Shown here piece after piece: positions 7,229 through 46,243 of a stretch of 64,000 bases of DNA. Below the pieces are notes generated by a model that saw only the letters and a list, made by a program, of their open reading frames with translations, had not been told where the DNA came from and searched no databases. This stretch comes from an uncultured Bacteroidales bacterium (lineage in GTDB: Bacteria; Bacteroidota; Bacteroidia; Bacteroidales; VadinHA17), in contig CAVSYN010000034.1 in the NCBI GenBank assembly GCA_963732115.1, positions 105,939 to 169,938 of the forward strand. The letters run 5' to 3'. Position 1 is the first letter of the stretch, and every line of letters begins with the position of its first letter. The position numbers were made by a program, and so were the translations under genes.

Positions 7229-8324
7229 TCACAGATAATTTATCGGATTGGTATTAGTTTTTGAAAACCGGACTGCAAAGTTAGGAAATTTTTTAATAAT
7301 GAGATCATATAATATTTCAGTCGAAAACTTTTCTGTCTCAAAATGACCACAATCAACAAGCAGTATCCGGTTTTCAGCTTCAAAGAAATTATGATACTTA
7401 ATATCGCCTGTGACAAATGCATCTGCTTTGCTGCTAATAGCCTCATTTAATAGGGAAACTCCTGAGCCACCGCAGAGTGCAACCTTTCTGATCATCGTGT
7501 TCCTTAACTTTGAATAACGGATCCCTCCTGCTCCGAAAACATCAGAGACCATATGAAGAAAATCAGTCTCACTTACCTGATTGTTTAACTCTGCTATACA
7601 ACCCAAACCAATGTTAATATTATCATTTTCAAGCATATATATATCATAGGCAACCTCCTCATACGGGTGGGTTTCAAGCAAAGCCTTTATTACCTTGTCT
7701 TTTAAGATGCGAAAAGAGAATAGTTTCAAACCTTGCTTCCTTTTCGAAATGCAGTTTCCCCTTTTCACCTACAAATGGATTTGTTTCCGCTCCTCCCCTG
7801 AAACTACCAGTACCTTCAACAGAGAACGCGCAATTATCGTAATTACCTATAACTCCGGCTCCTGCATTGAAAACCGCATCACGAACCTTGTCGAGGTGAT
7901 CTACCGGAACAAATGTAACCAGCTTAAGCAGCTTGTTTTTTAATGGTGACAGGACATTTATATTCATAAGGCCAAGTTTCTTGGCCATCTTTTTGCTCAC
8001 ACCTTCACCTGACATATCAAGATTGGTGTGCGACGTATAAATGCTTATATCGTGTTTTATCGCTTTGATTATTATCCTCCCCGTATAGGATTGCCCTGAA
8101 ATCTTTTTTATCGGACTGAAAATTACCGGATGATGTGAAATTATCATATCGCATCCCTCCCGAATTGCTTCATCAATTACTTCTTCGGTAACGTCGAGGG
8201 TGACCATTGCTGAAGTTATTTCTTTTTCTGGCTGGCCAACCTGAAGTCCGGAGTTGTCGTAACCTTCCTGAAAGGACAGGGGTACTGCTGAATCGAGGTA
8301 GGAACAAATTTCTGTTAATTTCAT
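7229..8324 (-). CDS. Nif3-like dinuclear metal centre protein (YqfO/GTP cyclohydrolase 1 type 2 family); one frame break near 7700
   Basis: MKLTEICSYLDS..PLSFQEGYDNSGLQVG, DMIISHHPVIF, IYTSHTNLD. PII-like insert. C-terminal AFVTGDIKYH and LVDCGHFETE. ORFs 7674-8324 and 7229-7768. Confidence 0.85.
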
Positions 8325-26371: not shown

Positions 26372-27616
26372 ATGAACAGATCCTTAATTCTCATTATCAC
26401 GGCATTATCCCTTTTTTCCTGCACAGGAAACAACCAGGGAAGAAAAAATAATCAAACCAATGAAACCATGACGACTGACAGCACCAAGCAATATGGATAC
26501 AATGTTAATTTCCTGAAGAAATATGTAAGAGTAATTGAATTGAAAAGCGGTATTTCTTCTGTGGCTGTTGTCCCGGATTGGCAGGGCAGAGTAATGACAA
26601 GTTCATCTGATGGTCTGAATGGATTCAGCTTTGGGTGGATAAATCATGACCTTGTTTCCTCAGGAAAAGTTTTACCTCATATTAATCCTTACGGTGGTGA
26701 AGAGAGGTTGTGGCTCGGCCCTGAAGGGGGCCAGTACTCCATCTTCTTTAAAAAAGGGGATGATTTTGTTTATGACAAATGGCAAACGCCTGCATTTCTC
26801 GACACTACTCCATTTGTAGTAACTGAGGAATCTGATACTTCAGTAACATTTTCACATAAGGTTGAAATTGATAATTATAGCGGGGCAAAATTCAAATTAT
26901 TGATAACCAGGAAAGTTGTTCTGGTATCTGACGAACAGTTCCTTGAACAAACTGGCTTTGACCTCAGGGGAACTAAATATGTTGCATATCGTTCAGAAAA
27001 TAAATTAATTAACCAGGGTGCGAATGAATGGAAAAAGGGAACAGGCCTGCTCTCCATCTGGATGCTCGGGATGTTCAATCCCTCCCCTGCCGTTACAATT
27101 GTTATTCCCGTTAAATCCGGTGATGAAAAGGAACTTGGAGTGCCGGTTAACGACAACTATTTCGGAAAAATATCCGGTGACCGGTTAAAAGTACTGGGAA
27201 ACAATATTTATTTCAGAGCTGATGGTAAAAGCAGGGGCAAGATAGGAATACCGCCCGGGAGAGCAACCGGCATAATGGGCAGCTATGATTTTGATAACAA
27301 TATCCTGACACTGCTTATTTGCAAAATGCCTGATGGGGATAAAAAATATGTAAACTCTGCCTGGAAGATTCAGGATGATCCATATTCAGGAGATGCCCTA
27401 AACTCCTACAATGATGGTCCCCTGGAGGATGGCTCGCAAATGGGGCCATTCTATGAGCTTGAAACCTCCTCTCCTGCTGCAGCCTTAAGACCCGGGGAAA
27501 GCATAACGCACAGCCAGATCACCGTTCATGTAACCGGTGATAAAAAGCTTTTGAACAGCATATCAGCAAAAGTGTTCGGAGTATCTCTTGACGAAATTGA
27601 AAAAGCTTTTAATTAA
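26372..27616 (+). CDS. Hypothetical lipoprotein (function unknown)
   Basis: Lipobox ALSLFSCTGNN. Intact 414-aa ORF with beta-rich composition. No family motif recognised. Confidence 0.5.
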   Translation: MNRSLILIITALSLFSCTGNNQGRKNNQTNETMTTDSTKQYGYNVNFLKKYVRVIELKSGISSVAVVPDWQGRVMTSSSDGLNGFSFGWINHDLVSSGKVLPHINPYGGEERLWLGPEGGQYSIFFKKGDDFVYDKWQTPAFLDTTPFVVTEESDTSVTFSHKVEIDNYSGAKFKLLITRKVVLVSDEQFLEQTGFDLRGTKYVAYRSENKLINQGANEWKKGTGLLSIWMLGMFNPSPAVTIVIPVKSGDEKELGVPVNDNYFGKISGDRLKVLGNNIYFRADGKSRGKIGIPPGRATGIMGSYDFDNNILTLLICKMPDGDKKYVNSAWKIQDDPYSGDALNSYNDGPLEDGSQMGPFYELETSSPAAALRPGESITHSQITVHVTGDKKLLNSISAKVFGVSLDEIEKAFN

Positions 27617-29728
27617 TTAGGTTGACCAGTCAGACCCCTGTTCCTGAGAAGCGGTTCAATCTGAGGCTCGCGACCCCTGAAGTTAACGTACATCTGCATG
27701 GCATCCATCGTGCCATTCTTTTCCAGAATGTTTGTTCTGTAGGAGGAAGCGACGGACTTGTTGAAAATACCTTTTTCCTTAAATGCTTCAAAAGCATCGT
27801 TATCCAGTACGGCTGCCCATGTATAACAATAATAGCCTGAATCATAACCGTCGATTATATGCAGGAAATAGGTGCTTCTGTATCGGGAAATAATCTCAGG
27901 GATAAGTCCGATCTTATTGAAATAGTCTTTTTCAAAGCTTTGAATATCAATTTTAACGGGTGCCTCAAGGGTATAATATGCCATATCAAGCAATGAGGCA
28001 GCCAGAAGCTCAACATTCACAAAACCCTGGTTGAAATATCCGCTGTTTTTTATTTTCTGGATCAGTTTGTCAGGAATGGTTTCTCCCGTTTCATAATGCC
28101 TGGCATACATTTTCAAAACCTCCGGTTCAGTTGCCCAATGTTCCATAAGCTGGGATGGAAGCTCCACAAAATCCCAGGCAACATAAGTCTGAGTATATGT
28201 ATTCCGGTTAAACAGGGCATCAAGTGCATGGCCGAATTCATGGAATAATGTTGAAACCTCATCCATATTCAGAAGAGCTGGTGTATCACCACTGGAACGT
28301 GTAAAATTGAATACTGTAGTCACAACAGGTGTAATAGCTTTACCATCCCTTATATAGCGGCTCCTGTATGTTCCACACCATGCACCCTGACGCTTGCTGT
28401 CGCGCGGATGAAAGTCCATATAGAGAACTCCGATGTGGGCACCAGTTGAATCTTTTACCTCAAAGGCTTCAGCTTCCCGATGGGGAAGAGGACACAGTGG
28501 TATCGGGATAAAAGTGATCCCGAAGAGCTTATTAGCGCAGGCAAAGACACCTTCACGTACATTTTCAAGCTTAAAGTAAGGCCTCAGTTCATTGTCATCA
28601 AGATCATATTTCTGTTTTCTCAGTTTCTCGGCATAATACCACCAGTCGGATGGTTCCAGTTTGAAGTTTCCGCCCTCCCGGCCAATGATTTTCTGCATTT
28701 CCACAACTTCATTCTTTGCCACGGGAAGAGCCTTTTCCCAAAGAGAGTTGAGGAGATTGAATACATTTTGCCGGGTTCTTGGCCATCCGCAGTTCAAGAA
28801 CATAATCTGCATGTGTCTTGTAGCCAAGGATCTTGGCTCTTTCAGCACGAAGTCTTACAATATCCGCAAGATTTTTATTGTTATCGTATTCGTTCCCATT
28901 ATTACCCCTGTTCGTATAAGCATGATAAATCTCTTCCCTTAGTTTCCGGTTGGGTGAATACTGCATAAAAGGAAAAATACTTGGGCGCTGTGTTGTAAAA
29001 GCCCACTTCCCCTCCTGTCCGGCTGCTTTGGCAACTTCAGCAGCCGAAGCAACAAGCGATTCAGGAAGGCCTTCAAGCCCATCCTTGTCGACAAACATCT
29101 TGTATTTGTTGGTTTCGTCGAGAACATTCTGGCTGAACTTCACTGTCAGGACAGAAATTTCCTGATTGATCTTTTTCAGCGTATCCTGATCCTGCTTGTT
29201 CAGATTTGCCCCGTTCCTCACGAATCCCTTATAGAGGTTTTCCAGTAAAAACTTCTGCTCCTGATTCAGATTGAAACCGGCCTGATTGTCATAAACAAAT
29301 TTGACTTTCTTAAAAAGTTCAGGATTCAGGTTTATTTCATCCCTGAATGCTGCAAGCTTTGGGGAGATCTCAACCTCAATATTCTGGAGTGAATCATTGG
29401 TATTGGCAGATGTCTGGGAAAAGAATACTGACGAAACGTTTGAAAGGAGATCGAGACTTTTATCAAGGGCATCGACAGTATTGTCAAATGTTGGTTCCTG
29501 TCTGTTTTTAATCAGCAGCTCAATGTTTTTACGACCCTCTTCCATTCCTTTTTCGAAAGCCGGCATATAATGTTTTGCCATGATCTTTTCAAAAGGAGGA
29601 ACATTGAATGGAGTGTTGAATTCTGAGAAGAACGGATTGCTTTTATCGGTTTGAGGCTGATTCGTGCATGAACCTAAAGTTATTACAGACAATCCCATAA
29701 TTATCAAATGTTTAACTGAGTTTTTCAC
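27613..29728 (-). CDS. M3 family zinc metallopeptidase (peptidyl-dipeptidase Dcp-like), lipoprotein; one frame break near 28800
   Basis: ORFs 28709-29728 and 27613-28848 are contiguous. Zinc site LFHEFGHALD. N-terminal lipobox ITLGSCTN. Confidence 0.9.
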
Positions 29729-29898
29729 AATAATATTTATTTGGGTTATTTACTAATCTTCTGATCTCTGTGCAAAATAAAGGTTTATCAAGTTGTTATC
29801 AAAAGAAATGATGAGGTTTATTATTTTTGATTGCGGAGAGAGGGGGATTATTCTCTTCGTTCATGATCCCCGAAGGGGAGGCTTCAAAGCCAAAGCAA

Positions 29899-29939
29899 AC
29901 CTGGTTTTTTCTGTGAAAAAACCAGGTGTTTTGTTTTTG
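29899..29939 (+). terminator. Hairpin 1 of module A with U-tracts on both strands
   Basis: 12-bp stem acctggtttttt/aaaaaaccaggt with loop ctgtg. Followed by gttttgtttttg on the + strand and by tttgctttgg on the - strand. Confidence 0.6.
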
Positions 29940-29974
29940 TCATGTCCTTCACAAAACAAGTTTTGTTCGGCCAT

Positions 29975-30010
29975 CCAAAAACAAAACCATCCGCCAGATG
30001 GCGGATGGTT
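29975..30010 (-). terminator. Intrinsic terminator of tRNA-Ser(CGA) (hairpin 2 of module A)
   Basis: 11-bp stem aaccatccgcc/ggcggatggtt with loop agat. On the - strand it is followed by TTTTGTTTTT. Confidence 0.75.
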
Positions 30011-30021
30011 TGCTTTGGCTT

Positions 30022-30113
30022 TGGCGGAGAGAGGGGGATTCGAACCCCCGGTCCGCCGATCGGTGGACAACGGTTTTCGAGACCGCCGCATTTGACCACT
30101 CTGCCATCTCTCC
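30022..30113 (-). tRNA. tRNA-Ser (anticodon CGA), CCA encoded
   Basis: Reverse complement reads GGAGAGATGGCAGAGTGGTCAAATGCGGCGGTCTCGAAAACCGTTGTCCACCGATCGGCGGACCGGGGGTTCGAATCCCCCTCTCTCCGCCA. It has a 7-bp acceptor stem, anticodon loop CTCGAAA, a long variable arm and T-loop GTTCGAATC. Confidence 0.95.
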
Positions 30114-30121
30114 AAACGGAT

Positions 30122-30129
30122 CAAAAGTA
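30122..30129 (-). promoter_or_regulatory. Candidate -7 box TACTTTTG for tRNA-Ser(CGA)
   Basis: The minus-strand sequence TACTTTTG ends 8 nt upstream of the mature tRNA 5' end. Confidence 0.45.
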
Positions 30130-30183
30130 AGAAATATTTGGCTTCTTCCACATCCTAAAAATATCAATTCTGAAATGAGATCT

Positions 30184-42962: not shown

Positions 42963-43036
42963 TAAATTTTCCGGTATAATGAAAAGGGAGGACATTTCAA
43001 GTCCTTCCTTTTCTTTTTATTCATTATCTTTTGGGA

Positions 43037-45000
43037 ATGAGAAACAGAATTATCCGGCTTTTTCTTATTATATTTTTCACAGGTACAATTTCATGCAGGA
43101 AAGAGACCCCGCCTGATCACAATGCGGGACTGATCCAGCTTGTAAGTGTGAAAATTGGTTCCACCACTCTCGACGTGAATGCCACTGTTAAAAACGTGCC
43201 TTATGATCAACCAGTTCAGTTATCTTTTACAAGTGAGGTGGATACCGGTTCAATCAGAAAAGCAATCAGCATCCGGAATTCCAATGGGACTTTTGTAACT
43301 TTTACATACTCCTATACAGACAGCTCCTCAACACTCACCCTGACTCCTGCTTCCCTTCTGGGGAATTTCACCGATTATACATTGACAATATCCGGCACTT
43401 TAAAAGGAGCAAAAGGAGAGACTTTCCCCGGAGTGCAATTTCAATTTACAACCCTGGCAGGTTCAATGGTGATTGATTCCATAACCCTCAACGGAATACC
43501 ACTGACTGCTTCCCCTTTGCTGAACATTGACCCCAATAAAATCGAAATCAAGGTTACTTTCTCACAGGCTTTGGATGCAGCCAATTATCAATCATCGTTT
43601 TCTTTTACAGGACCTGTTTTGTCCTTCACGCTTTCGGGGGATAGCAAAACTGTGACGGCGACTAATATAACAGCGGCCCAGGGTCTCACCAGGTATACTT
43701 TTTCCGTTTCCTCCGCTTTAACTTCCGCCGGAGGCTTCACTTTCGCCGGCTTTTCTTCTTCTTTTTATACCCGGGTCGATTCCACATATCAGGTTCCCCC
43801 AAATCCCGGATGATGATCTTTTAACACTTGTCCAGCGCCAGACCTTTAAATATTTCTGGGATTTTGGACATCCGTTGTGCGGTATGGCACGGGAACGAAA
43901 TTCTTCAGGCGATATTGTCACCACAGGAGGCTCAGGATTCGGAATTATGGCCATGATAGTTGCTATGGAAAGAGGATTTATTACCAGAACTGAGGGAATC
44001 GTCCGGCTGGACAAAATTCTTGATTTCCTGGAAACCTGCGACCGTTTTCACGGTGTCTGGCCGCACTGGATAAACGGCGCAACCGGAAAAACACAACCTT
44101 TCAGTGCCAGGGACAATGGAGGAGATCTGGTGGAAACCTCATATCTGATTCAGGGTCTGCTTTGCTATCAGGCAATACCTCGATTCTGCAATCCCTGGGG
44201 AGAACGCAGATATCCTGCGGATCAATAACTTAGTTAATTCCGTCGAATATGACTGGTTTACCAGAGGCGAAAAAACTCTTTACTGGACATGGTCACCTGA
44301 TTTTGGTTATAACCTTAAAATCCAGGGCTATAATGAAACCCTGATCACATACATACTGGCCGCTTCTTCTCCAACACATACTATTACAGCGGATACCTAC
44401 ACTATGGGTTATGCAAACAACGGAGGAATAAAGAACGGCAAAAGCTATTTCGGATATCTTTTACCACTCGGACAAGATTATGGCGGACCTCTGTTTTTTA
44501 CACATTATTCCTTTTTAGGACTTGATCCCCGCCACCTGAAAGATCAATATGCAGATTATTGGGAACAGAATGTAAATCAGTCTCTTATAAATTATACCTA
44601 TTGCCTGTCAAATCCCAGAAAATATCCTGGTTACGGTTCCGGAATATGGGGATTGACAGCCTCCGACAATCCATGGGGATATAATGCTCATTCCCCGACC
44701 AATGATCTGGGAGTAATCACCCCAACGGCTGCCATCTCTTCTATTCCCTATACTCCTGCTCAATCTATGAATGCCTTGAAGACTGATTACTACTTTCTTG
44801 GGGATCGTCTGTGGGGCGATTATGGATTTTATGATGCCTTTGATATAACTGAGGGATGGTGGGCAAATTCTACTCTTGCTATCGATCAGGGACCGATTAT
44901 TTGTATGATTGAAAATTACAGGACAGGACTTCTATGGAATTTGTTTATGTCAGCCCCCGAAGTGCAGAACGGACTGACCAAGCTGGGTTTTACTTTTTAA
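43037..45000 (+). CDS. Ig-like repeats fused to a second GH144-like glucoamylase-family domain; at least three frame breaks
   Basis: The N-terminal lipoprotein part with tandem Ig-like repeats (43031-43813) runs on into LLTLVQRQTFKYFWDFGHPLCGMARER, TTGGSGFGIMAMIVAMERGFI, FHGVWPHWINGATG, AIDQGPIICMIENYRTGLLW. It is a paralog of 35467-36810. Confidence 0.6.
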
Positions 45001-45443: not shown

Positions 45444-45736
45444 ATGTACCTGAAAAACAGATTGTCATCCCGAAGCGAAGCGAGGGATCCCTTTATAAAT
45501 ATCCCATTCAAATAAATATCTTAAAAGTAACATTGTATTACAACAAAAATATAACCTGATACAATAAATAATTGACCCATATCAATAAATGACTTAACCA
45601 TAAAGGGTACAGGAGTTTTAAAAAGGTGGATGTGTATAATGGGTAGTTATCGTTTAAGGGAAGGGTCGGGGATGGGTTAATAAACTTAGGCCCAGAATAA
45701 ATTTTGGGATGTTTCAAACCCAGGCAAATGTGAAAG

Positions 45737-45846
45737 TCCCTCCCACCCCGGGGGAGGGATTGCCTTCGGCGAGCTCGTCCCGCTAAGCGGGACTCGGTTT
45801 AGGGAGAGGCCGGTTCGGGGATTATTCGCTTCGCCCGCCGAAGATT
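45737..45846. repeat. GC-rich hairpin cluster plus a degenerate third partial copy of the module start
   Basis: Hairpins tccctccc/gggaggga (45737-45759), gtcccgc-taa-gcgggac (45777-45793) and cttcg/cgaag (45829-45843). ggggattattcgctt at 45817-45831 repeats 45860-45874. Confidence 0.6.
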
Positions 45847-45916
45847 TTGGCGGAGAGAGGGGGATTATTCGCTTTGCTCATGATCCCCCGAAGGGGAGGC
45901 TTCAAAGCCAAAGCAA

Positions 45917-45945
45917 ATCCTGCTAAAGCAGGATGTTTTGTTTTT
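45917..45945 (+). terminator. Hairpin 1 of module B with U-tracts on both strands
   Basis: Stem atcctgc / loop taaa / stem gcaggat, followed by gttttgttttt. Confidence 0.55.
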
Positions 45946-45983
45946 ATCATGTCCTTCACAAAACAAGTTTTGTTCGGCCATTT

Positions 45984-46020
45984 AAAAACAAAACCATCCC
46001 GACGAATTGTCGGGATGGTT
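45984..46020 (-). terminator. Intrinsic terminator of tRNA-Ser(GCT) (hairpin 2 of module B)
   Basis: 12-bp stem aaccatcccgac/gtcgggatggtt with loop gaatt. The minus strand continues TTTTGTTTTT. Confidence 0.75.
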
Positions 46021-46031
46021 TGCTTTGGCTT

Positions 46032-46121
<90 letters not shown>

Positions 46122-46205
46122 AGAATATTACTGCTTTATTGCCACCTTCGTCCGCCAAAGCTTTAGCGACGGCGGATCACCCATCTCTCCAATCAGTGCC
46201 ACAGT
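46122..46205 (-). other. Putative ~85-nt 5' leader of tRNA-Ser(GCT) containing a 14-nt copy of the tRNA 5' end and a hairpin
   Basis: tcacccatctctcc at 46177-46190 is identical to 46108-46121. Hairpin tccgcc...ggcgga lies at 46151-46176. The promoter boxes lie upstream of this segment. Confidence 0.5.
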
Positions 46206-46212
46206 TGTGCGA

Positions 46213-46243
46213 CAAAAATAGGAAAACAAGTATAAAGTGCAAA
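46213..46243 (-). promoter_or_regulatory. Bacteroidota-type promoter (-33 TTTG, 19-nt spacer, -7 TATTTTTG) driving the tRNA-Ser(GCT) unit
   Basis: The minus strand reads cTTTGcactttatacttgttttccTATTTTTG. -7 box at 46213-46220, -33 at 46240-46243. Confidence 0.55.

Follow-up and report, generated by a model that had tools for sequence, protein, structure and literature searches.

What is the highly structured sequence that follows both tRNA genes in a 64,000-nucleotide stretch of DNA from an uncultured Bacteroidales bacterium (VadinHA17; GenBank assembly GCA_963732115.1, contig CAVSYN010000034.1, positions 105,939 to 169,938, forward strand), and how did it come to stand there? This whole stretch, called the window here and the source of all coordinates given without a locus name, has two tRNA genes according to ARAGORN and Rfam, namely tRNA-Ser(CGA) at 30022-30113(-) and tRNA-Ser(GCT) at 46032-46121(-). 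The ~190 nt 3′ of each gene (29833-30021, copy A, and 45848-46031, copy B) align block for block and form a module without any open reading frame (ORF) in its 190 bp. We tentatively read this module, at just under an even chance, as a miniature insertion cassette flanked by attachment (att) sites that regenerates the tRNA 3′ end, supplies a terminator, and is now largely resident and possibly domesticated.

A first-pass annotation, made from the letters of the DNA, had proposed a repeated module behind both tRNA-Ser genes, and the repeat-finder blocks and the alignment agree that it is real and far from anything chance would give. A 32-nt block (29868-29899 = 45886-45917) and a 50-nt block that includes the tRNA 3′ end (30003-30052 = 46013-46062) are 100% identical, and a third block of 75 nt with 91% identity contains an identical 35-mer. 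The last 28 nt of tRNA-Ser(CGA) are those of tRNA-Ser(GCT). Each module consists of a 130-145-bp imperfect palindrome, a GATC-bearing hairpin derived from a tRNA T-arm, and a direct repeat of the cognate tRNA from T-loop to 3′ end. The palindrome begins at tRNA position 73/74 and holds two different terminator hairpins, here called hpL (proximal to the tRNA) and hpR (distal), as well as a central hairpin.

Read on the tRNA strand, the tRNA end ...CTCTCCG-CCA is followed by the outer arm CAAAGCCAAAGCAAA, hpL, TTTTGTTTTT, the central stem-loop ..CCGAACAAAAC-TT-GTTTTGTGAAGG.., AAAAACAAAA, hpR, the second outer arm TTTGCTTTGGCTTTG, the linker AAGCCTCCCC-TTCG-GGGG, the hairpin GGGGGATC...AATAATCCCCC, and finally TCTCTCCGC(CA). 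In copy A, the proximal outer arm (30009-30023, minus strand) begins within the encoded CCA, and hpL (29987-30008, minus strand) has the form CCATCCGCC-ATCT-GGCGGATGG and is followed on the tRNA strand by its tract at 29977-29986. An inner stem of a T-run and an A-run (29929-29986) surrounds the central hairpin and encloses the 16-bp palindrome ACAAAACAAGTTTTGT (29951-29966). Beyond it lie hpR (29899-29927, plus strand; ACCTGGTTTTTT-CTG-AAAAAACCAGGT), with its strongest T-run on that strand, and the distal outer arm (29885-29899, minus strand). The linker CCCC-TTCG-GGGG and the T-arm-derived hairpin GGGGATC...AATAATCCCCC together occupy 29842-29884(-), and the module closes with 17 nt (AATCCCCCTCTCTCCGC, 29833-29849, minus strand) that directly repeat the tRNA from its T-loop to the 3′ end.

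Copy B has the same plan on the minus strand, with its palindromic part at 45903-46033 (outer arms 46019-46033 and 45903-45917; hpL 45991-46021; central palindrome 45958-45973; hpR 45917-45934) and its linker, T-arm-derived hairpin (45859-45889) and 19-nt tRNA-end copy with CCA (45848-45866) at 45848-45902. The individual elements of the first-pass annotation were thus recovered: hairpins that differ in sequence between the copies and are fully paired in both, a 15-nt long-range complement between 29885-29899 and 30009-30023 that reaches into the encoded CCA, the 16-bp palindrome, the minus-strand CCCC-TTCG-GGGG at 29868-29878, and the 17-nt copy of the tRNA 3′ end.

The fold is equally constant. 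As a single strand, 29833-30024(-) folds at -58.7 kcal/mol (z = -11.7 against dinucleotide shuffles), and RNAfold gives a common four-way junction of outer stem, hpL, capped long inner stem and hpR in 61 of 61 non-redundant members of the family described below, at a mean of -71 kcal/mol (individual examples -52 to -73). RNAalifold on a MAFFT alignment recovered the central hairpin alone, as the variable hairpins misalign, so single-sequence folds and a structure that we specified were used in place of its consensus. At the distal tRNA-end copy, the 5′ strand of the hairpin reads GGATC in 51/57 members, where ~5% would be expected by chance. This identifies the distal hairpin as a T-arm in which T54 has turned to A and the loop has been enlarged.

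In either copy, hpL and hpR are each called terminator-like on the two strands, and each is followed by a U-tract, TTTTGTTTTT after hpL on the tRNA strand and GTTTTGTTTT after hpR on the plus strand. Over about 11 different hpL hairpins in the family, mismatches on the tRNA strand comprise 14 G·T and one A·C, an RNA-type bias as expected for the terminator of the tRNA. From these sequence features we conclude that hpL is a putative intrinsic terminator of the tRNA, made up of hairpin and tract, at which the tRNA transcript probably ends.

Relatives were sought with two patterns, and loci outside the window are given by numbers from L002 to L131. A scan of one genome per species, in which the pattern fixed the two outer arms, gave 25 matches, 20 of them true modules, all in Bacteroidales, Rikenellaceae or Bacteroidia metagenome-assembled genomes (MAGs). 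These modules lie directly 3′ of tRNA-Ser (CGA, GCT or GGA), except for one that stands behind a tRNA 3′ fragment only; the other five matches arose by chance and have no module features. A metagenome scan, whose pattern fixed the T/A-runs and the centre and left the two hairpins and the outer arms free, yielded 98 stretches, most of which are modules directly 3′ of a tRNA. Over all fetched loci, 76 modules adjoin a called tRNA: 65 adjoin tRNA-Ser (GGA 29, GCT 16, CGA 15, TGA 5), an excess due in part to the search because both patterns derive from tRNA-Ser modules and bias the tRNA range, and the others adjoin Met(CAT) (5), His (2), Asp, Leu and Val (one each) and one tRNA of undetermined type. 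Two tandem modules follow tRNA-Arg(ACG) in L085 and L046. In L085 (3814-4256; likewise in L046) the order is tRNA, module, a pseudo-T-arm with an 8-nt repeat, a second pseudo-T-arm, and a second module; the second pseudo-T-arm comes with 19 nt that perfectly copy the 3′ end of tRNA-Arg, and this is the clearest tandem case outside tRNA-Ser. The idea that every tRNA carries a module was discarded, as plain terminators only follow three of the types of tRNA-Arg gene in these loci; this holds for the tRNA-Arg(CCG) genes and, of the two tRNA-Arg(ACG) genes, for that of L034.

A covariance model built from 57 members has exactly two strong matches in the window, the two copies, at 131.5 and 123.7 bits, while the rest of the window stays at or below 20 bits. 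The model recovers members outside its training set at E-values, rough as these are, of 1e-24 to 1e-8, and it finds nothing in module-free or chance-match loci. Two weak matches in the window were also seen, one at 7952-8077(-) (E 0.037) in sequence without any module feature and one at 42973-43078(+) (E 0.15). One subfamily has integrases next to it that are homologous to named ones of Flavobacteriaceae and Chryseobacterium, which places the family in at least two orders. The conservation in relatives that the first-pass annotation had left to be checked is extensive, with pattern scans and covariance model finding more than 70 members in contigs of Bacteroidales and Flavobacteriia. Several contigs end inside a module, as expected for a multi-copy repeat; the repeat breaks MAG assemblies.

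Outside this setting the family was not found. The suggested Rfam look-up returned nothing except the tRNAs: in the window no match but the two tRNAs reaches the gathering score, and relaxing the search to E<=10 on 29700-30130 adds only tRNA- and terminator-driven matches far below threshold. Three module patterns gave zero matches in viral contigs, blastn gave zero in plasmids and phages, and the scans found no member away from a tRNA 3′ end. The modules are apparently an undescribed and widespread family of non-coding palindromes at tRNA 3′ ends in Bacteroidia.

We read the distal repeat as one of att type. It always starts at the AAT of the T-loop, and its sequence follows the cognate tRNA. 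Repeats of 17-19 nt are seen in both window copies, in L060 and L072/L088, and for the Ser(TGA) subfamily (AATCCCTCTTTCTCCGC), and the tRNA-Arg repeat has 19 nt (AATCCTGACGAGGTCACTA). L060, a contig from metagenome Ga0326726, is very near to copy B over the module, with identical hairpins and 19-nt repeat and only a few substitutions. The repeat is AATCCCGGG for Met, TCCCGTCC for Asp, and CAGTCCTG for Leu, the last inside an 18-nt imperfect copy, and two Ser tRNAs with variants in the T-loop and T-stem have the repeats AACCCCCC and AATCCCTT. In copies A and B, the direct repeats of 17 and 19 nt are of the kind that flanks an integrative element in a tRNA gene. Over the family, the flanking repeat comprises 7-19 nt of tRNA sequence, and in most other members the distal copy is only AATCCC(C), which forms the 3′ strand of the distal hairpin.

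The tRNA genes themselves have peculiarities. Both window genes encode CCA (..CCGCCAAAGCC; 30022-30024 and 46032-46034), and most relatives read ..CCGCAAAGCC, with CAA rather than CCA at positions 74-76 and an outer stem that then starts from G73-C74; whatever the tRNA family, the trailer starts with CAA or CCA. One sequence, CCGGGGGTTCGAATCCCCCTCTCTCCGC, forms the T-arm and acceptor 3′ strand of Ser(CGA), Ser(GCT) and Ser(GGA) alike, both within and across genomes, and Ser(TGA) departs from it slightly. These shared 3′ ends could reflect replacement of the tRNA 3′ end by a cassette that carries its own.

Sites without a module, or with a different one, were found at 71-83% identity, which is the range of all such comparisons. 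In L125, the AAA-ATPase/tRNA-Ser(GCT) locus (71% protein identity) has no module, and what comes after the tRNA is GCAAAGCTTTC with a plain terminator. In L131, a 13-nt tRNA-Ser fragment beside an integrase is followed by a plain terminator, and in L104 and L036 a plain terminator comes after the distal tRNA-end copy, as expected if that copy is the original 3′ end, displaced together with the trailer it had before. The flanking DNA of L127 and L129 is 81-83% identical to the window, in L129 with synteny on both sides, and another class of module stands at the same tRNA (arms CAAAGCCAAA(T/A)TATTCC.., runs TTTTTATTTT/AAAATAAAAA). L129 also has an older, left-truncated module resembling class 1, that of the window, farther out than the new one, and the more distant L128 (76%) has retained class 1. 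Extra units, complete or decaying, lie distal to the intact module in copy B (45700-45847), L005, L011, L014, L019, L088, L105 and L124.

Integrases are found at the same tRNA ends. Islands with a tyrosine integrase (domains Phage_integrase, SAM_5 and Arm-DNA-bind) and, in L098, an HTH_17 protein as well, reach up to a tRNA-Ser 3′ fragment of 13-18 nt in L098/L113 and L109, and the module follows this fragment. In L098, a 71-aa remnant resembling an integrase N terminus, with no Pfam match, starts just past the distal copy. An integrase family of ~404 aa with an HTH_17 partner (L098 474-2147 and 2611-2823; L131 9815-11224) uses a 13-nt core, CCTCTTTCTCCGC, at the tRNA-Ser(TGA) 3′ end. By this core, L098 and L131 have a conserved island-side sequence, CTCC(A/T)TTACTAT, which bears a loose resemblance to the ..GAAGTAAT end of the distal hairpin of the cassette. 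Two loci reached through integrase homologues in a search for the attL ends of islands have no tRNA within 10 kb.

The module-free sites, class replacement, decaying tandem layers and integrase islands at the same ends together point to an att-flanked miniature cassette, and of the explanations offered by the first-pass annotation, an att-type feature at the tRNA-Ser 3′ end fits the cognate repeats, the islands and the module-free sites best. We read the cassette as a non-autonomous integrative element without an integrase, similar to a cis-mobilizable element. It would enter at the T-loop/3′ end of a tRNA gene carrying its own copy of the tRNA 3′ end, so that the gene stays intact. The old 3′ end would be pushed to the far side, where it would now form the 17-nt and 19-nt direct repeats next to the GATC T-arm-like hairpin, an arrangement resembling the element-side core of an att site. 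Since insertion parts the tRNA from its native trailer, the cassette would supply a new one, in which an A-rich stretch of 14 nt, a GC-rich hairpin and a U-tract would end the tRNA transcript; the second hairpin, a mirror image that has this U-tract on the opposite strand, may block transcription from downstream. The two halves would make up the 130-145-bp DNA palindrome, and their complementarity may be kept by template switching, by conversion of one arm by the other, or by a folded single-strand or cruciform state. Insertion would require a tRNA-specific tyrosine integrase acting in trans, or carriage of the cassette with an island. If the cassette is mobile, its attP-type junction would read GGGGATC..AAT-AATCCCCCTCTCTCCGCCA-AAGCC and its circle junction ...GGGGGATCATGAGCAAAGCGAAT-AATCCCCCTCTCTCCGCCA-AAGCCAAAGC....

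Several findings weigh against this reading, in particular against ongoing mobility. There is no integrase in or beside the window copies, and tblastn with the tRNA-Ser integrase of L098 finds none in the window; the loci compared showed neither an excised form nor a circle junction, no presence/absence polymorphism within a species, and no empty site with an exact boundary. The distal copy has mostly shrunk to AATCCC(C) and the palindrome is still well conserved, and the divergence of the module rises with that of the host (68-79% identity, against ~50% for unrelated intergenic DNA), both of which favour long vertical residence under host-level selection. Copies are homogenised within a genome (L009/L024, L005/L011), and some outer layers are local tandem duplications that need no integration (L126, L128, L007). 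A circle of ~190 bp is physically awkward for tyrosine recombinases. Finally, the preponderance of tRNA-Ser stems partly from the Ser-derived search patterns.

In a rival reading, the module would be the native trailer of tRNA-Ser, a pair of face-to-face bidirectional terminators that is inherited vertically, selected, and homogenised by gene conversion through the identical 3′ ends, with the repeats produced by tandem duplication. The terminators would then insulate the tRNA from its neighbours, and islands would merely integrate alongside. We regard this as possible, with rather less than an even chance. It suits the six relatives of the copy A locus in which the module lies between convergent tRNA-Ser(CGA) and nupC genes, where a two-way terminator is sensible, and it accounts for the 68-79% conservation over the ~50% intergenic baseline, for within-genome copies that are more alike than orthologous ones (L009/L024, L005/L011), for the recent tandem duplications in L126, L128 and L007, and for the islands of L098 and L109, which leave the module outside attR like native flank; even the module-free trailer of L125 still begins with GCAAAGC. 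However, a native trailer leaves unexplained why the repeat starts at the T-loop and matches the cognate tRNA in at least seven tRNA families, why Met, His, Asp, Leu and Arg tRNAs share one architecture across two orders, and why a new class stands proximal to an old truncated one in L129, and terminator function has no need of exact long-range complementarity. The cassette and the native trailer differ mainly in how the module arrived, and less in its role once in place.

The long-range complementarity raises the question of whether it is a property of RNA or of DNA. On the 57-sequence alignment, in which the outer, inner, middle and central helices were scored, standard pairs make up 93.5% of cells against 85.6% in shuffles, and 41-57% of cells are paired when the partner is slid by 1-3 columns. 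Changes on both sides occur in 17 of the 35 scored pairs (10.5 in shuffles) and in 144 cells (40 in shuffles). None of 500 shuffles matches the observed values, although the members are related by descent and the shuffle controls therefore overstate significance. Covariation thus extends beyond the two copies in which the first-pass annotation had noticed it. The outer arms, which lay outside the metagenome pattern, have at least 10 different sequences with complementarity kept, such as ACCGTCAAAACAAAC/GTTTGTTTTGACGGT, CAAATGAAACCAACC/GGTTGGTTTCATTTG and AATGCAAAAAGC/GCTTTTTGCATT.

A constraint on one RNA strand should favour G·T over A·C mismatches, as it does in hpL. In the outer, inner and central helices the two are balanced (outer stem 13 G·T and 13 A·C; inner stem 1 and 1; centre 2 and 2), the middle stem has 13 and 6, and hpR has few of either (2 G·T, 5 A·C); only hpL has the asymmetry of a transcribed hairpin. 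The balance in the long-range helices suggests that the long-range pairing constraint acts on DNA rather than on one RNA strand. In L002 and L044 the normally asymmetric centre (GAA opposite TGAA) has become fully symmetric, in opposite directions, which is one arm copied onto the other. Template switching at quasi-palindromes is a documented origin of both compensatory changes and perfect stems (PMC8794818), and such maintenance of the arms at the DNA level would give covariation without an RNA that spans the module. We conclude that the long-range complementarity is a DNA property, arising from arm-to-arm conversion or from a folded-DNA form, and that no small RNA is indicated.

A folded-DNA form leads to a further idea, drawn by analogy and doubtful on present evidence, in which, in the manner of integron attC sites or the folded attP of CTX phage, the recombination site of the module would be recognised in the form of a folded single strand or cruciform, made of its cloverleaf-like palindrome and GATC T-arm-like hairpin, and would recombine with tRNA T-arms. 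If true, this would be an undescribed class of miniature mobile DNA in Bacteroidia, and it would explain a single architecture for at least seven tRNA specificities, Watson-Crick-only pairing on both strands, and the regeneration of a tRNA 3′ end together with its own terminator at each insertion.

A structured non-coding RNA, either the whole four-way junction as a pre-tRNA 3′ domain (e.g., one released when RNase III cuts the outer stem) or a small RNA on the plus strand with a 5′ end antisense to the tRNA 3′ end, is in our view improbable. The very stable, conserved and covarying junction would suit it, as would an outer stem that starts exactly at tRNA position 73/74. So would the better folding of the tRNA strand (by 3.9 kcal/mol on average, in 52/61 modules), but this energy difference proved uninformative as a strand call, because loop effects contribute to it and G·U counts are alike (54 vs 41), and the test of G·T against A·C was used in its place. 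The equality of G·T and A·C in all long-range helices is unlike true structured RNAs, and each strand has a canonical terminator (a hairpin and 9-10 U) inside the structure, so that neither transcript should reach its long-range partner. Of the structured pre-tRNA trailer proposed by the first-pass annotation, only hpL stands, as a terminator, since transcription would stop before the rest. The antisense small RNA it proposed for the plus strand is unsupported. The -7 box TATTTTTG is present at 29822-29829 but does not qualify as a promoter, having no -33 TTTG partner; copy B reads AGATTTTG at this position, the relatives lack the box and, mostly, the tRNA-antisense segment as well, and the long-range stems have no G·U excess on either strand. 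Zero Rfam matches, even at E<=10, and the decaying tandem copies and tRNA-end repeats, which would be unexpected for an RNA gene, also argue against an RNA.

An inverton was rejected because the hairpin types never change side (0 left/15 right and 25 left/0 right) and because no promoter consensus occurs inside the module. A small transposon with inverted repeats (MITE) moved by a DDE or Y1 transposase that targets tRNA 3′ ends is very unlikely: although the module is small, non-coding, present in several copies per genome and bounded by inverted repeats perfect over 15-21 bp, it has no fixed-length target-site duplication but a flanking repeat of 7-19 nt of tRNA, no copies were found away from tRNA 3′ ends, zero matches occur in the viral, phage and plasmid collections, the internal hairpins differ between copies of one genome, and the inverted repeats vary by tRNA family with complementarity kept, when a transposase would need a conserved end.

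Among known systems, the cassette comes close to the cis-mobilizable elements (CIMEs) and other decayed elements at tRNA and tmRNA genes, such as the Streptococcus CIMEs and the Dehalococcoides islands with tandem ssrA direct repeats (PMC3146451; reviewed in PMC5704250). Like these, the module sits at a tRNA 3′ end, is bounded by a tRNA-end direct repeat, lacks an integrase of its own, accretes in tandem with newer units by the tRNA, and shares its site with integrase islands. Unlike them, it has only ~190 bp and is wholly non-coding, where CIMEs are kb-sized deletion derivatives of particular integrative and conjugative or integrative and mobilizable elements; it is also a conserved four-way palindrome over two orders and at least seven tRNA specificities, whose mobility is putative. 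The IntN2 integrase of NBU2 integrates into the 3′ end of tRNA-Ser genes in Bacteroides (PMC8816746), and the module shares with NBU2 the target in Bacteroidales, the short tRNA-end direct repeat and the nearby integrase islands (L098, L109). NBU2, compared by description only, differs in having ~11 kb with integrase and mobilisation genes, and the module lies outside the islands.

Other resemblances concern the palindrome. As in bidirectional intrinsic terminators, each hairpin of the module is either rich in GC or long and stands between an A-tract and a T-tract, and the proximal one tolerates G·U on the tRNA strand in the manner of an RNA; unlike in these, two different terminators stand face to face in one palindrome whose arms pair over ~110 nt and covary. 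Integron attC sites and the attP site of CTX phage are recombination sites recognised as folded single-stranded DNA. They too are imperfect palindromes of 60-140 nt in which structure is kept, sequence varies and pairing is Watson-Crick-only, and a recombination role is what we propose here for the module; unlike attC, it comes without an integron integrase, a gene-cassette array or R/L core boxes. ERIC, Correia and BIME/REP elements are likewise imperfect intergenic palindromes of ~100-150 bp in several copies, able to act on transcription or RNA stability, but they are dispersed over intergenic sites, whereas this family occurs only at tRNA 3′ ends and with a tRNA-end repeat.

If the cassette reading is true, a small cassette, selfish or domesticated, sits at tRNA-Ser and some other tRNA genes of Bacteroidales and Flavobacteriia, where it rewrites both the 3′ end of the gene and the terminator and leaves an additional tRNA end of att-like character. 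This bears on the evolution of integration hot spots, and detectors of islands by tRNA fragments would report such cassettes as tiny 'islands'. For pNBU2-type integration at tRNA-Ser, a decoy att copy may be present. For the discovery of RNA motifs, the module is a case in which strong covariation probably comes from DNA-palindrome dynamics rather than from RNA function.

The genes adjoining the window copies encode an M3 peptidase, NupC, an AAA ATPase and a glycoamylase. At the locus of copy A, the tRNA and module (29833-30113) are inverted in the window relative to L005, L006, L009, L010, L014 and L019. In these six relatives the M3 peptidase gene and the tRNA point away from each other and nupC runs towards the module; the window has all four on its minus strand. 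At the ends of the inverted cassette, the 7-nt acceptor pair GGAGAGA/TCTCTCC is the sole inverted repeat. Two overlapping ORFs (Pfam positions 1-72 and 66-456) share the M3 peptidase gene (27613-29728(-)) between them, and the Big_5/glycoamylase gene (43031-45000(+)) is broken into three ORFs, whereas its L129 homologue has a single ORF of 622 aa or more. The split genes are either pseudogenes or indel errors of the assembly, and given these apparent frameshifts, single-base differences between the copies (GGGG vs GGGGG) may be errors as well.

The older, decayed layers beyond copy B (45700-45847, minus strand) contain a second ..GCGAATAATCCCC hairpin end, a C-rich CCTCTCCCTAAACC, CTCGCCGAAGGCAATCCC and a hairpin CCCTCCC..GGGAGGG, and these features have counterparts in relatives. 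A C-rich motif, CCTCTCCC(C/T)AAACC(CC), which is G-rich on the opposite strand, lies distal to the modules in many relatives; at 45700-45790 of the window and in L008, L014, L015, L020, L025 and L129 the CCCTCCC..GGGAGGG hairpin follows it. It is possibly a rut-like or quadruplex-like element, or one more old layer. Tandem repetition is frequent just distal to the modules: an 83-nt unit occurs at least five times in L007 (6725-7451), ~230 nt are duplicated in L128 (4590-4830), distal halves are repeated in L126 (5140-5420), and microsatellites of GTAATCA and CACACC occur in L064 and L122.

Upstream of tRNA-Ser(GCT), the Bacteroides-type promoter consensus TTTG-N19-TATTTTTG at 46213-46243(-) is the sole full match to such a promoter near either module, and it is kept in relatives. 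The leader of this tRNA contains, at 46177-46190 and 46140-46176, a partial copy of the tRNA 5′ end, GGAGAGATGGGTGA, followed by a hairpin. In L124 (4836-4905) the 5′-end copy spans tRNA positions 1-31 and 37-47, with a hairpin in place of the anticodon loop, and in L011 two such units stand in tandem upstream of 2486. The 5′-end copy in the leader mirrors the copy interrupted at the T-loop on the 3′ side.

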